Positions 41,961 through 48,880 of a stretch of 64,000 nt of DNA are shown one piece after another (the first letter of the stretch is position 1; the number at the start of each line of letters is the position of its first letter). Origin of the DNA: Escherichia phage W143. The DNA is taken from sequence record MZ189262.1; one strand, written 5' to 3'. The position numbers and the translations under genes were made by a program. The notes under the pieces are model-generated. The model worked only from the letters and a program-made list of their open reading frames with translations, was not told the origin of the DNA and made no database searches.

Positions 41961-44225
41961 TCATAATTTACAGGATGAACAATCTTCAGCTTTTGGAGTT
42001 TCTATTTCGTAATCATCAGTACCGGAACCATCGCGAGTATTATGATAATAGAAGTTTTTAATGCCATAATACCATCCGTATAGCATGTCATCAATCATTA
42101 CAGACATTGGAACCTTTCCTTTTGGAAAAATCTGCGGGTCATAATATGTATTCGCTGAAGCTGATTGACATACCCATTTCAGCATAATAGCTACCTGCGT
42201 AAGATAAGGTTTATTGCCTTTCTTAGCTAATTTCCACGTATAATCATAGAGGTCTATGTTATGCTCAATATTGGGCACGACTTGATTAAAGGAACCCTCT
42301 TTTGATTCTTTAACAGAGACTGGTCCACGTGGAGGCTCGATACCGTTTGTACTGTTAGAAACTTGGGAAGATGACTCACATGGCATAAGTGCTGATAATG
42401 TGCTATTACGGATGCCAAAGAGCTTAAGGTCTTCCCGCAGCGACGACCAGTCACAAACGTATTTTGGAGCTGCGATTTGGTCAATCTTTTTATTGTACCA
42501 GTCGATAGGTAATTCGCCTCGAGACCAACGAGTGTCTGAATAATACTCGCAAGGTCCTTTTTCTTTGGCGAGTTTAATGGATGCTTTAATGAGTCCATAC
42601 TGTAATCTCTCAAATAGTTCATGTGTTAAATCGTTAGCATCTTCATAAGAAGCAAAGTTACTTGCCAGCCAAGCTGCATAGTTAGTAACACCTACGCCAA
42701 GGTTTCGACGCTTTTTAGCTTTTTCTGCTTCAGGAACTGGATATCCTTGGTAATCCAAAAGATTATCAAGAGCACGAACTTGAACTTCTGCTAATTCATT
42801 AATTTTATCTTGGTCTTGCCAATCGAAGTTATCCAACACAAATGCAGATAACGTGCACAATCCAATTTCAGCATCAGGGCTATTCACATCATTTGTTGGA
42901 ATAGCAATTTCACAACACAAGTTACTCTGACGAATAGGTGCCTTTTCACGAATAAACGGAGTATAGTTATTCGTATTATCAATGAACTGTACATAAATCC
43001 TTGCTGTTCCTGAGCGTTCAGTCATGAGTAATTCAAACAGTTCACGGGCTTTAATACGCTTTTTACGAATATTAGGGTCTTTTTCTGCGGCTTCATATAA
43101 TTCACGGAAACGGTCTTGGTCTTTAAAATAAGAATAATAAAGCTCACCACCCATTTCATGTGGACTGAACAAAGTAATGTAGTCGTTCTTTCCAAAACGT
43201 TCCATCATCAAATCATTCAGCTGGACGCCATAATCCATATGACGGATACGGTTTTCTTCTACGCCTTTGTTATTTTTCAAAACGAGAAGATTTTCAACTT
43301 CCAAATGCCAAATAGGATAATAAGCAGTAGCAGCGCCGCCACGAATTCCACCCTGTGAACATGATTTAACAGCAGTCTGAAAATGTTTCCAAAAAGGAAT
43401 AACACCAGTATGACGCACTTCACCTGTGCCAATCTTAGAACCTTCGGCACGAATCATACCAACGTTAATACCAATTCCAGCTCGTTTCGAAATATACTCA
43501 ACAATTGAAGCAGAAGCCTTATTGATAGACTTCAGCGAATCACCTGCTTCAATAACGACGCATGAACTAAACTGTCGAGTTGGAGTACGACATCCAGCCA
43601 TAATAGGAGTTGGCAGTGAAATCTGTCGAGTAGATACTGCTTCATAAAAACGAATAACATGTTTTAATCTGTCAACAGGTTCATCTTGATGCAATGCCAT
43701 TCCAATAGTCATAAATGCAAACTGCGGAGTTTCATAAATTTGACCAGTGGTTTTATCTTTAACGAGATATTTTTCTTTTAATTGCATCGCCCCGGAATAA
43801 GTAAATTCCATATCCCGCTCGTGCTTAATTTTTGATTCTAAAAATGTAATTTCTTCTGCAGAATATTTTGACAACAATTCAGGGTCGTATTTACCTTCAT
43901 TTACACAGTAAGAAATATGGTCAATAAATGAACGTGGTTCATACTGACCGTAAACATGCTTACGAAGAGCAAACATTAAACAGCGTGCAGCTACGTATTG
44001 ATAATCAGGCTCTTCAACTGAAATAGAATTCGCAGCAGCCTTAATTACAATAGTTTGAATGTCATCAGTGGTCATTCCATCACGGAGATATGATTTAATA
44101 TTTTCATATAATTCATAAGGATCTACAGATGTTCCTTCAGCTGCCCAAGATAAAACTTTAATAATTTTTTGCGGGTCAAAGCTCTGAGAAACACCACTAC
44201 TTTTGATAACATTAATTAATTGCAT
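41961..44225 (-). CDS. nrdA: ribonucleotide reductase large subunit
   Basis: 754 aa; C-terminal CxxC tail (DCSSCKL); synteny. Confidence 0.93.
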   Translation of the reverse strand: MQLINVIKSSGVSQSFDPQKIIKVLSWAAEGTSVDPYELYENIKSYLRDGMTTDDIQTIVIKAAANSISVEEPDYQYVAARCLMFALRKHVYGQYEPRSFIDHISYCVNEGKYDPELLSKYSAEEITFLESKIKHERDMEFTYSGAMQLKEKYLVKDKTTGQIYETPQFAFMTIGMALHQDEPVDRLKHVIRFYEAVSTRQISLPTPIMAGCRTPTRQFSSCVVIEAGDSLKSINKASASIVEYISKRAGIGINVGMIRAEGSKIGTGEVRHTGVIPFWKHFQTAVKSCSQGGIRGGAATAYYPIWHLEVENLLVLKNNKGVEENRIRHMDYGVQLNDLMMERFGKNDYITLFSPHEMGGELYYSYFKDQDRFRELYEAAEKDPNIRKKRIKARELFELLMTERSGTARIYVQFIDNTNNYTPFIREKAPIRQSNLCCEIAIPTNDVNSPDAEIGLCTLSAFVLDNFDWQDQDKINELAEVQVRALDNLLDYQGYPVPEAEKAKKRRNLGVGVTNYAAWLASNFASYEDANDLTHELFERLQYGLIKASIKLAKEKGPCEYYSDTRWSRGELPIDWYNKKIDQIAAPKYVCDWSSLREDLKLFGIRNSTLSALMPCESSSQVSNSTNGIEPPRGPVSVKESKEGSFNQVVPNIEHNIDLYDYTWKLAKKGNKPYLTQVAIMLKWVCQSASANTYYDPQIFPKGKVPMSVMIDDMLYGWYYGIKNFYYHNTRDGSGTDDYEIETPKAEDCSSCKL

Positions 44226-44542
44226 AAGTCCTCAACTTGAAAATCGTCTTTAAACAATCGGTTAACTATATGAGCTATTATATCACCATGACACGGCTTT
44301 GGTTTACATGTGCATCCTAGCCTCATTCCACGTAAAGGCTCTAAATGTGCTTTAGTTATTTCTCCGGATTTAATTCGACGTATAAAATCTTTTTTGAATA
44401 ATTCAATGGCAGCCTCCCGGCTGCCAGCATCTTTACCGACGTAATTTCCCCAAAATGTACCACGGTGAATATTAACATCAAAGTCGGATTTATATTTATT
44501 CACTACCTGGCATAGACGGCCCGCGCGGTGATAATTCGTCAT
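44216..44542 (-). CDS. hypothetical protein with C-x-C...C-H motif, between td and nrdA
   Basis: 108 aa; [13 protein letters not shown] motif. Confidence 0.55.
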
Positions 44543-44759
44543 ATTGTTTTTCCGTTAAAACAGTAATATCATAGTAACAATCTGAAGAAGTTTTAACTGT
44601 AGAAATTTTATTATCAAAATACTCACGAGTCATTTTATGAGTATAATATTTTTTGCCATAAATGATAATAGGCTGATTTGGTCCTGGAACTTCTAACTCA
44701 CTTGGATTAGGAAGTGTAAAAAGAACTACACCTGAAGTATCTTTAAATCGTAAAATCAT
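44496..44759 (-). CDS. hypothetical protein between td and nrdA
   Basis: 87 aa. Confidence 0.5.
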
Positions 44760-44782
44760 ATATCCTCACAATTAATAATTAA

Positions 44783-45643
44783 TTACACCGCCATTTTTCC
44801 TTTAATAGGAGGGTGTGATTCGTAACCTTTAAGAACGAAATCTTTAGGCCTGAGTTTAAGAATGTATTCCAATTGTTCCTTAGTAGAAAGATAGCGGAAT
44901 TTATAAGGCAATCCGCCTATTACCAGTTCACAAAGCTCTTTAGGTTCACGACGCAAAATTTCTTTACATTGTTCTACGTGATTCATATAGATATGAGTAT
45001 TACCACCAGAAAATATCAAATCTCCTGGAATAAGATTACACATCTTAGCTACAATATGAACCAACGCAGCATATGATGCAATGTTGAATGGCAAGCCCAA
45101 GAACACGTCAACACTTCTTTGATACCACTGCAAATCCAAATAGCCATTACGCACATTAAACTGATAAAACATATGACAAGGTGGTAATGCCATATATTTA
45201 AGTTCAGCTGGATTCCACGCCGACACAATTTGTCGCCTATCATTTGGTAGTTTTTTAATACAATCAACAACTTCTATAATTTGGTCTACACCGCCAAAAT
45301 CACGCCATTGTTTTCCATAAATTGGACCAAGTTCACCGCTATGATATCCTAAATCTTTTGCTTGATTTTCGTAATTTTCATCCCAGACTGTTTTGCCTTG
45401 AATTAATGAATCATGCTGAATTAATCGTAAATCATTTACGTTAGTACTTCCTGACAAAAACCATATTAGCTCAGCAATACAAGCTTTCCAGGCGAGCTTC
45501 TTAGTCGTTACTGCAGGAAAACCTTTAGTTAAATCCCAGCGTAATTTAGTACCGAACAAAGCAATTGTTCCTGTGCCTGTTCGGTCATCGGTTTCATAGC
45601 CATTTTCAAAAATGTCTTTAATTAAATCTTGGTATTGTTTCAT
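44783..45643 (-). CDS. td: thymidylate synthase, uninterrupted (no group I intron)
   Basis: 286 aa in one frame; active-site region ALPPCHMFYQF. Confidence 0.93.
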   Translation of the reverse strand: MKQYQDLIKDIFENGYETDDRTGTGTIALFGTKLRWDLTKGFPAVTTKKLAWKACIAELIWFLSGSTNVNDLRLIQHDSLIQGKTVWDENYENQAKDLGYHSGELGPIYGKQWRDFGGVDQIIEVVDCIKKLPNDRRQIVSAWNPAELKYMALPPCHMFYQFNVRNGYLDLQWYQRSVDVFLGLPFNIASYAALVHIVAKMCNLIPGDLIFSGGNTHIYMNHVEQCKEILRREPKELCELVIGGLPYKFRYLSTKEQLEYILKLRPKDFVLKGYESHPPIKGKMAV

Positions 45644-45687
45644 TTAGTACCTTATATAAATTATAATACATTTTATGAAGCTAATAA

Positions 45688-46047
45688 TCAATACGGTTTA
45701 GCATCAAATTTTCTTTCGATTTCAGGAGTGAAATATAATTCTTTACCACGTTTGGAAAAACGACCAATAATATGATAATTATTCTCATCAAACGTGATAT
45801 TGCCAATATCCATAGCTTTCAACCAAATATCGATATTTCTATCCAGCTTTATATCAAAATTCCAATACGGAGAACTATTACCAAAAATACTACAAGCGGA
45901 TTCAGTGAAACAACTGCTATAAATTTTGTCTTTAGGAACTACTAATTGATAGACGCCTTTAATAAACTGAGGACCCTGCCATTTTGGTTGTTTCGCGTCT
46001 TTTTCTAATAGAATAGGGTAATAATTAAAGTTCATATTTTCCGCCAC
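45688..46047 (-). CDS. hypothetical protein between frd and td
   Basis: 119 aa ORF occupying the frd-td junction. Confidence 0.6.
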   Translation of the reverse strand: MAENMNFNYYPILLEKDAKQPKWQGPQFIKGVYQLVVPKDKIYSSCFTESACSIFGNSSPYWNFDIKLDRNIDIWLKAMDIGNITFDENNYHIIGRFSKRGKELYFTPEIERKFDAKPY

Positions 46048-46055
46048 GCGTTATT

Positions 46056-46882
<827 letters not shown>

Positions 46883-46892
46883 ATTATTTTCC

Positions 46893-47135
46893 TTAAACAG
46901 ACTTTTTCACAATTTTCCAATCAGCTTTAAACTGTTCAACATCAGAATGGTAAATCCAAAACCCTGCGCTTTCTCCATCCTCATAAAGAGGGCATCCATC
47001 GCATTCATCTTCCCATCCCATATCACGCAAAAGAAGTTCAGCTTTTTCAACAAGTTCAGAATCTTTACCGATGATATTAAAATACCATTTACCTCTAACT
47101 TCTGAATCTTTGATGCTCTGGCGTTGTAATCTCAT
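46893..47135 (-). CDS. hypothetical protein (frd-upstream cluster)
   Basis: 80 aa; GAGGAG RBS; early promoter upstream. Confidence 0.55.
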   Translation of the reverse strand: MRLQRQSIKDSEVRGKWYFNIIGKDSELVEKAELLLRDMGWEDECDGCPLYEDGESAGFWIYHSDVEQFKADWKIVKKSV

Positions 47136-47160
47136 TTTATTCTCCTCAGTTGATAGGGTA

Positions 47161-47190
47161 ATAGTATCACACTACTACCCTTCTGTAAAC
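47161..47190 (-). promoter_or_regulatory. early promoter upstream of ORF 46893-47135
   Basis: - strand GTTTACA, 17 nt spacer, TACTAT. Confidence 0.6.
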
Positions 47191-47555
47191 TACTTTTTGA
47201 AAGTTTTTCGTAAAAGTTCAATGATTTCGTCTACATTGTTTTCGTCAACAATACAGTGAATTTTTGTTACGCCAGAAACCTTGTCTTCAACTTCATCTTT
47301 TTCAGAAGTCGGTTCTTTATATTCACGGAAACAATGAAATTCGTCTTCACAGACGTTAAAGTAAAAATGCTTTCCATTTGCGCATTCAATGTGTTTTATT
47401 ACTCTAAATCCATCAGCAAAGAAAGCTTCTTTAACTTCAAACCATCCGCCATTATCTCGAATAGCTTTAACTATTGATGAATTAGAACGCGGGCGATAAT
47501 TAATAAATGTATCAATAAGTCTTGGAACAAGTTCATATTTTCTACCAATATACAT
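47190..47555 (-). CDS. hypothetical protein (frd-upstream cluster)
   Basis: 121 aa. Confidence 0.55.
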   Translation of the reverse strand: MYIGRKYELVPRLIDTFINYRPRSNSSIVKAIRDNGGWFEVKEAFFADGFRVIKHIECANGKHFYFNVCEDEFHCFREYKEPTSEKDEVEDKVSGVTKIHCIVDENNVDEIIELLRKTFKK

Positions 47556-47576
47556 TGTGTTTTCCTCATTTTAATA

Positions 47577-47592
47577 GGGGCTTGATAGCCCC
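47577..47592 (-). terminator. GC hairpin (GGGGCTATCAAGCCCC) between small ORFs
   Basis: Stable stem, no U tract. Confidence 0.35.
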
Positions 47593-47599
47593 TTAATAA

Positions 47600-47827
47600 T
47601 TACTGCTCAATAAATCCTGTGTAAAATTCTACATCTTCAGCATCCATACCGTCACAATATTCATTAACCATAAATTGTTTAAGACGATTTAAAGGACCTT
47701 CAATAACAACTGAAACATTGCAATTGGGGTCATTTAGTGCGCTTGTAATACGGAGTTCAGGATAACGATTACGAATAATTTCTTCAATATATTCAAAATC
47801 AACAACATCAATATCAATTTTAGCCAT
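47600..47827 (-). CDS. hypothetical small acidic protein downstream of gene 32
   Basis: Likely start MAKIDID with AAAGAGGAA RBS (ORF track frame to 47848); early promoter upstream. Confidence 0.55.
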
Positions 47828-47870
47828 GTTATTTTCCTCTTTAATCATCAGCAGTATTGCCGATAGTTGT

Positions 47871-47900
47871 ATAGTACCATAAAGCTTTATGCTTGTAAAC
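47871..47900 (-). promoter_or_regulatory. early promoter downstream of the gene 32 terminator
   Basis: - strand GTTTACA, 17 nt spacer, TACTAT. Confidence 0.6.
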
Positions 47901-47919
47901 AGTTTTGTGAAAAAATTTT

Positions 47920-47949
47920 GAAATAAAAAAGGGGACCTCTAGGGTCCCC
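47920..47949 (-). terminator. intrinsic terminator after gene 32
   Basis: - strand GGGGACCCTAGAGGTCCCC followed by TTTTTTATTTC. Confidence 0.8.
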
Positions 47950-47971
47950 AATTAATTAGTAATATAATCTG

Positions 47972-48880
47972 TTAAAGGTCATTCAAAAGGTCATCCAGGT
48001 CCGTGTCATCAGCACTAGATGAACTGCCAGAGCTTGAGCTCATAAAATCATCTTCAGTTTTTGTTTTGAAGTCATCAACATTGAATGCATCCAAATCATC
48101 AGCAACTTTATCAGCTTTCTTAGCAGCAGTTGCTGCGGCACCACCCATAGCAGCAGTTCCCATAACTTGACTGAACTTAGTGCTCAGTTCTTCAAACGAT
48201 TTGAATTTATCTTTAGAAGTCATTTCAGAAAGGTCAACCATTTGTTCGAACAGTTCTTTCTGGAAAGATTCATCATCAATGTTTGGAATCGCAGATTGAT
48301 TCAGGAATTTAGATTCGTCGTAGTTACTAAAACCAGAAACTTGTTTAACTTTCAGTACAAAGTTAGCACCTTCCCATGGACAAGTTACATCAACCGGAGT
48401 TTCGCCCATTTCAACATCAACTGCAATCATTGCATTGATTTTATCCCAGATTTTTTTACCGAAACGGTATTTAAATACTTTACCTTCATTTTCTGGAGCA
48501 GCTGGGTCTTTTACTACAAGAATGTTCGCCCAGTAAGAAGTTTTACGTTTAACAAGACCGTACTCTTTATTGTCAGTGTTGTACAAATCATTTTTACTGA
48601 TGTACTGACATACTGGACAAGAATCGTAATCACCGTAGGTAGATGAGCATGTTTCAATATACCATTTACCATTTTTCTTGAAACCGTGATTTACAAGAAG
48701 TGCGAATGGTGCTTGTTCATCATTTTTAGACGGAAGAAAACGAATTACTGCTTGACCGTTACCCGCATTATCGAGTTTCAGTTTCCACTCGCCTTTATCT
48801 TCAGAAGAAAAACCACCTTTATTTCCAGCCAGTTTAGCCATTTGTGCAGCGAGTTCAGCAGTAGATTTACGTTTAAACAT
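47972..48880 (-). CDS. 32: single-stranded DNA-binding protein gp32
   Basis: 302 aa; N-terminus [17 protein letters not shown]; acidic Ser-rich C-terminus; operator-like leader and strong terminator. Confidence 0.95.

Follow-up and report, generated by a model that had tools for sequence, protein, structure and literature searches.

A small PHROG 1928 gene at the frd-td junction of T-even phages, probably an old resident lost from T4

The genomes of T4-like phages show general collinearity, and they are well known for the small variable ORFs that separate some of their core genes. In phage T4 (NC_000866), the genes encoding dihydrofolate reductase (frd) and thymidylate synthase (td) are directly adjacent, with a 4-nt overlap of stop and start codons (ATGA) and nothing between them, as the preliminary description of this locus had correctly stated. 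The gene 32-nrdA cluster of T4 also contains several small ORFs (frd.1/DUF5417, frd.2, frd.3, nrdA.1/DUF4326 and nrdA.2/DUF5496), which are short, lie in a prereplicative region, keep a conserved order and have no known function. In other T-even phages, an additional gene of this general kind is already deposited as a hypothetical protein at the frd-td junction in hundreds of GenBank records, including those of T2 (AYD82824, 'RB32ORF229c') and T6, and equivalent hypothetical proteins are present in RB14, RB32 and RB51. The junction gene shares these traits with the small ORFs of the T4 cluster, but it shows no homology to them (hhalign probability at most 3.3%) and is missing from T4. No paper naming or describing it was found, and no source assigns a function to its family, PHROG 1928; the T2 trigger proteins with which the bNACHT11 preprint is concerned are the products of other genes.

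The stretch analysed here (the window, 64,000 nt) is a segment of a Tequatrovirus (T-even) genome, with 94-97% identity over 20 kb to several deposited phages. Its minus strand presents the order gene 32 (47972-48880), frd.3, frd.2, frd.1, an 81-aa ORF, frd, the junction ORF, td, nrdA.2, nrdA.1 and nrdA. The upstream neighbour of the junction ORF, frd (46056-46637, minus strand), encodes a 193-aa dihydrofolate reductase (Pfam DHFR_1, E 1.4e-19; PHROG 316), and the downstream neighbour, td (44783-45643, minus strand), is intronless and encodes a 286-aa thymidylate synthase that matches Thymidylat_synt over its full length (E 3.8e-95). The exact intergenic interval between them, 45644-46055, contains the minus-strand ORF of 119 aa that had been reported at this junction, and the ORF list places it at 45688-46047, with a GTG start and a product beginning MAENMNFNYY. 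The ATG at 46035-46033 is probably the better start, giving a protein of 115 aa (45688..46035, minus strand; stop TGA at 45690-45688), since a GGCGG Shine-Dalgarno-like block is located 5 nt before it (46041-46045), no Shine-Dalgarno-like sequence was detected upstream of the GTG at 46047, and MNFNYY is the N-terminus in all orthologues and in the GenBank annotations of the ORF. The in-frame extension to the GTG (46036..46047, minus strand; MAEN...), which gives the 119-aa version, is probably not translated. The 115-aa protein has a pI of 8.5, is mildly basic and contains 20 aromatic residues (17%). It is 100% identical to the T2 protein, whose gene occupies the same position and strand, and it matches the PHROG 1928 profile essentially end to end (E 9.5e-36; residues 8-115 on profile positions 2-125 of 126), identifying both as the same gene.

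Frame-specific codon usage, synonymous-only divergence, low dN/dS and the existence of tblastn relatives together establish the junction ORF as a real protein-coding gene under very strong purifying selection. The codon-usage score is best in the annotated frame (-3.82, against -4.30 or worse in the other five), and GC3 (0.26) and base composition resemble those of neighbouring genes. The window and T2 alleles differ at nine synonymous and no non-synonymous sites, and the ratio of mean dN to mean dS over 15 Tequatrovirus pairs is 0.031 for the junction ORF, compared with 0.091 for frd and 0.081 for the td 5' exon. Purifying selection is tighter on this gene than on the flanking enzymes, and dN/dS is still about 0.1 in the comparison with a 63%-identical metagenomic orthologue. 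That the ORF arose by chance and yields no protein might be suggested by the lack of any functional annotation and by the early T2 record AY310907, which left it unannotated, but this view is refuted by the selection data, besides conflicting with the cross-genus conservation and the confident fold prediction, and we regard it as extremely improbable. The preliminary description had allowed for the ORF lacking a coding signal, which the codon usage, the dN/dS of 0.031 and the synonymous-only changes relative to T2 supply, and for its presence at this junction in T4, where the junction is bare.

The homology and structure searches that had been proposed for this ORF yielded the PHROG 1928 match on the one hand and, on the other, no relative in Pfam, NCBIfam or the PDB and no significant fold neighbour. 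Searches of Pfam, NCBIfam, PADLOC and PDB sequences, for which the queries were the protein alone and profiles of 23 and 30 members, returned nothing significant, and no PDB sequence match fell below E 0.04. Among the 580 phage records in which tblastn detected relatives, 362 showed at least 90% identity and the other 218 less than 60%; the phages of this second group have Klebsiella, Salmonella, Citrobacter, Erwinia, Pectobacterium and further bacteria as hosts. When 1.84 billion representatives were scanned exhaustively with HMMER, 22 matches were returned, comprising 20 proteins of 95-116 aa and two repeat artefacts, and a profile search of 5.8 billion proteins returned only unnamed proteins of 113-148 aa, some of them from named T4-like phages; no fusion of a family member to dihydrofolate reductase or thymidylate synthase was present among the matches of either scan. 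PHROG 1928 is confined to T4-like (Straboviridae) phages, and its members have pI values of 6.8-9.4. Within the window, neither hmmsearch nor hhalign identified further paralogues. A weak structural match in BFVD pointed to Aeromonas phage phiAS5, in which a 49-kb stretch contained no match to frd, td or the family.

The genomic position of the family, an empirical feature of these loci that does not enter into the definition of the PHROG, is constant. Of the distinct phage or contig loci read, 22 carry a member; in each of them it is the gene immediately following frd, and td comes next in every one of these except L024, whose contig ends first. Record taxonomy confirmed five genera (Tequatrovirus, Jiaodavirus, Mosugukvirus, Gelderlandvirus and Kagamiyamavirus), and homologues with 26-46% identity occupy the frd-td slot in the latter four, in Erwinia, Kosakonia and Edwardsiella phages and in metagenomic T4-like contigs. 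Outside Tequatrovirus, two tandem paralogues were observed in every locus read except that of KPV15 (Jiaodavirus). These paralogues pair by hhalign at probabilities of 98.3% and 96.6%, the second ORFs match PHROG 1928 at E 1e-16 to 1e-39, and overlapping stop/start codons usually link the tandem members to frd and td. Such pairs include gp191/gp192 of PM2, AFU63915/AFU63914 of STML-198, ORF255/ORF254 of EcS1 and those of Edwardsiella phage PEi20, all of which belong to the same family and slot as the window gene and have in common with it the residues W19, G27, G91, K95 and G97, invariant across both paralogue types (L9, Q16, Y29, F93 and F102 are nearly invariant). The window differs from these phages in presenting a single copy, with a short spacer between frd and the gene and 44 bp between the gene and td, whereas they carry two copies joined by overlapping codons. 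In addition, one copy of each pair (L004 2808-3155, L005 2809-3156, L006 2814-3185, L023 4332-4673, L027 2501-2941 and L029 2501-2935) contains a conserved insertion of approximately 20 residues (WALV..PTI..YK..P..Y) right after the invariant Trp, suggesting that the two paralogues may have diverged in whatever they bind.

The comparison of frd-td junctions among relatives, also proposed in the preliminary description, outlined three alleles within Tequatrovirus. For this survey, 60 rows were drawn systematically from the 514 records that match the T4 junction, and 56 of these 60 could be classified. The allele with this ORF (716-bp-class span) accounted for 40 of the 56 records (~70%), while the bare T4-type junction was the minority allele, present in five (~9%; two T4 records, vB_EcoM_112, HY03 and G28). 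The remaining 11 records (~20%) carried an insert of ~206 bp, which was read in Yersinia phage fPS-65 alone and assigned by matched-span length in the others (pSs-1, ELT1 and further records). In fPS-65 (L007 754-960, minus strand), the insert encodes an unrelated, basic 68-aa ORF, linked on both sides, to frd and to td, through overlapping stop/start codons; its family, PHROG 9550, has no known function. The possibility that it is a truncated copy of the 115-aa ORF was rejected on the basis of its assignment to PHROG 9550 and an hhalign probability of 0.1%, and the short third ORFs of L027 and L029, considered as relatives of the 68-aa ORF, were rejected on comparison. In the metagenomic contig L023 the order is frd, paralogue A, paralogue B, a 69-aa ORF and td, with paralogue A 63% identical to the window protein and the 69-aa product 81% identical to that of fPS-65. 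Since this contig holds all three elements in the frd-td slot, both Tequatrovirus insert alleles look like subsets of one larger array.

The boundaries of the alleles are marked by short direct repeats. In the window, two minus-strand copies of the 9-bp sequence TAAATGAAA flank the gene, the left copy (46054..46062) spanning the frd stop codon (TGA, 46058-46056) and the right copy (45638..45646) the td start codon (ATG, 45643-45641). The distance between them, 416 bp, is also the difference in length between this junction and that of T4 (spans of 717 and 301 bp), and alignment with T4 shows that a single copy remains there. A deletion between the two copies would leave the exact T4 junction sequence, and in the fPS-65 allele a deletion between copies of AATGA (5 bp) would leave the same sequence; the presence of ATGA-type overlaps at gene boundaries in this region means that deletion between short repeats restores the precise frd/td overlap. 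RB69, which belongs to another genus (Mosigvirus; L030 6370-6400), has no family member and presents a bare junction, TATAAATGAAACAATACC, identical to that of T4. Such identity is expected, because a precise loss joins the conserved C-terminus of Frd (VYK, stop) to the conserved N-terminus of Td (MKQYQ). The RB69 junction fits recurrent precise loss at ATGA-type boundaries, and shared ancestry or exchange of the junction are also possible.

The flanking repeats give no direction by themselves, and an insertion would fit them as well. The preliminary description had taken the ORF for an accessory gene inserted into the thymidylate-synthesis operon. Its accessory character stands, in that T4 lacks the gene and that it is dispensable and variably present, but the insertion does not: the junction gene is best read as a long-standing occupant of this slot that has disappeared at least from T4-type phages and RB69. 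This reading is based on the homologues occupying the same slot across genera, on a mean dS within Tequatrovirus that equals that of frd for the same phage pairs (0.185 for the junction ORF and 0.169 for frd), on the nesting of T4 frd among those of ORF-bearing phages (dS 0.10 between T4 and L009, compared with 0.17 between the window and L009) and on a composition matching that of the neighbouring genes. A recently inserted mobile or 'moron' cassette, such as the remnant of a free-standing homing endonuclease, is largely refuted by these same observations and appears very improbable. In its favour, T4 lacks the gene, the 9-bp flanking repeat can be read as a target duplication, and relatives do have homing endonuclease genes close to this site (I-TevI, within the intron of td, and in EcS1 an endonuclease gene adjacent to td). 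Free-standing homing endonucleases are known to sit between conserved T-even genes, with Seg proteins of the GIY-YIG and Mob proteins of the HNH type. Nevertheless, no GIY-YIG, HNH or other nuclease domain was detected (no Pfam match at E <=0.1 for the 115-aa protein, and no nuclease family at E <=1 in the 23 members), the locus presents no terminal inverted repeats or transposase, and the slot is the same in at least five genera. Old residence is also consistent with the identities across genera, which correlate with rho values of 0.29 between the family and Frd and 0.44 between the family and Td, about as well as those of Frd and Td do (0.35). The window and L023 are 63% identical in the family protein and 49% in Frd, a difference that leaves room for some past horizontal exchange of the cassette.

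To assess the fold of the protein, a first AlphaFold model based on four sequences was poor (pLDDT 61) and was replaced by a model based on 23 family members (pLDDT 92, pTM 0.84). The predicted elements are a strand at residues 6-12, a long loop, a strand at 27-34, short strands at 38-40, 48-50 and 62-64, a helix at 68-76, a short strand at 80-82 and a hairpin of strands 86-96 and 99-104. The model thereby describes a putative compact domain of beta-barrel plus helix, whose predicted order (b1-b2-b3-helix-b4-b5) is compatible with the OB pattern, in which the helix lies between strands 3 and 4. Structural searches with the 115-aa model returned no significant solved neighbour, and the lists below significance were dominated by OB folds (SSB, RPA, Teb1, S1 and RuvA domain I). 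The strand and helix order of the model agrees with that of the OB-fold domains of SSB, RPA, S1 and Teb1, which bind ssDNA or RNA, but the superposition falls below significance, so that an OB-like fold should be taken as a weak lead and not as a classification. In the model, residues W19, G27, G91, K95, G97, Q16, Y29 and F93 map to the beta1-beta2 loop and the beta4-beta5 hairpin, which would border the ligand-binding face if the OB fold were real.

With regard to function, the best explanation overall joins an old-resident PHROG 1928 gene to a role as a binding subunit, and we hold this joint proposal tentatively, as falling somewhat short of probable. Its identity and evolutionary part, taken as one claim, is highly probable; its functional part, by which the product is a dispensable, non-catalytic accessory binding subunit of the thymidylate/dNTP-synthesis machinery, is possible but not probable. 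As proposed, the gene would be co-transcribed prereplicatively with both its neighbours, with the overlapping stop/start codons of other genera providing a signal of co-expression. The binding target of its product would be Frd, Td or some other partner, for instance gp32 or nucleic acid, and the product would be helpful but dispensable on laboratory hosts. The 115-aa protein contains no catalytic motif. Phages T4, RB69 and those of the fPS-65 type lack the gene yet keep near-identical Frd and Td, and since they manage without it the product is not an obligatory subunit of either enzyme. The argument from synteny is weakened by collinearity: the constant frd-td position may simply have been inherited along with the gene order, without any functional tie, and frd.1-frd.3 and nrdA.1/nrdA.2 are equally syntenic and equally unexplained. 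A stronger version, in which PHROG 1928 is a structurally novel third component of the phage dihydrofolate reductase-thymidylate synthase module, acting as a scaffold or regulator that would link the two enzymes with one another or with the machinery of replication, is unlikely; were it true, the loss of the gene in the best-studied phages, T4 and RB69, would explain how the family escaped notice.

Two further roles were weighed against that of an accessory binding subunit. The protein might act in counter-defence or host takeover, for example by inhibiting an enzyme or immune protein of the host or by serving as a small-molecule sponge, merely riding in the prereplicative frd-td unit with no role in thymidylate synthesis. 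Small, variable and dispensable genes without a known domain are typical phage accessory traits, and this one is small, non-enzymatic, without a recognisable domain or significant solved fold neighbour, dispensable in T4 and RB69 and variable in presence among close relatives, in a slot with interchangeable cargo (the 115-aa ORF, the 68-aa ORF or nothing). A dN/dS of 0.03, below that of the flanking enzymes, is on the contrary not what an arms-race target would be expected to show, although this objection is tempered by the fact that a sponge may itself be conserved if its signal is. The retention of one position across at least five genera with different hosts, and of two tandem paralogues, also speaks against this role, as do the lack of a PADLOC match and of sequence or fold matches in the PDB searches, in a set presumably including the solved Tad1, Tad2, Acb2 and Gad1; on balance, we consider it possible but not probable, and nearly as likely as the accessory-subunit role. 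Less likely is a regulator that would bind ssDNA or RNA through an OB-like fold, working for example at the replication fork or on the frd/td mRNA, whose translation or stability it would tune. The predicted strand-helix order follows the OB pattern, the low-scoring structural matches are mostly OB nucleic-acid binders, the family is mildly basic within its pI range, and the conserved W19, Y29, F93 and K95 would lie in loops bordering the binding face if the fold is of this type. Against this stand structural scores that are all below significance, a net charge of only about +2, the absence of any RNA- or DNA-binding Pfam signal in the 23 members and of a conserved RNA element nearby, and such a regulator seems unlikely.

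As a finding, the gene is minor, being already annotated and ordinary, and as a lead it is modest. T4 is the exception at the frd-td junction, and expectations based on T4 are hence misleading there. The tight selection on the family, the fixed frd-td slot that it occupies in five or more genera, its paralogues and a confidently predicted fold without a match make it a reasonable target for functional work. If it acts in nucleotide synthesis or in counter-defence, it would be a component that work on T4 and RB69, neither of which has the gene, could not have brought to light.

The 44-bp spacer between the stop codon of the junction ORF and the td start codon (45644..45687, minus strand) contains a promoter-like element and an AAGG Shine-Dalgarno-like block for td. 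A promoter scan predicted a sigma-70-like promoter, TTGATT-17-TATTAT, before td (45691 to 45663), and the record of phage Lutter annotates the equivalent spacer interval as 'promoter'. If this promoter is real, td of the T2 type would have its own promoter where T4 has no spacer. A MotA-box-like AGCTTCA was also noted by eye in the spacer, 12 nt ahead of TAATTT. An Rfam scan of positions 44000-48000 returned a single match, a chance one below threshold, and revealed no conserved RNA element near the junction.

Several other features were observed around the junction. The 81-aa ORF between frd.1 and frd (46637-46882, minus strand) has one base in common with the frd start codon; it corresponds to T2 'RB32ORF231c' (PHROG 3183, no Pfam match), and T4 has only a 71-bp gap at this position. 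Phage HY03 keeps the 81-aa ORF and lacks the 115-aa ORF, indicating that the two indels flanking frd are independent. The td gene, continuous in the window, is split in T4 by a 1-kb group I intron with I-TevI; mutual exclusion of the 115-aa ORF and this intron was considered and rejected, as both are present in L009 and in phage Lutter. Downstream, nrdA.2 (DUF5496) and nrdA.1 (DUF4326) have 47 nt in common, read in different frames (44496-44542, minus strand), as is also annotated in T4. Finally, the td 5' exon presents two deeply diverged allele classes among close relatives, with dS up to 1.0, which could reflect co-conversion around the homing site.
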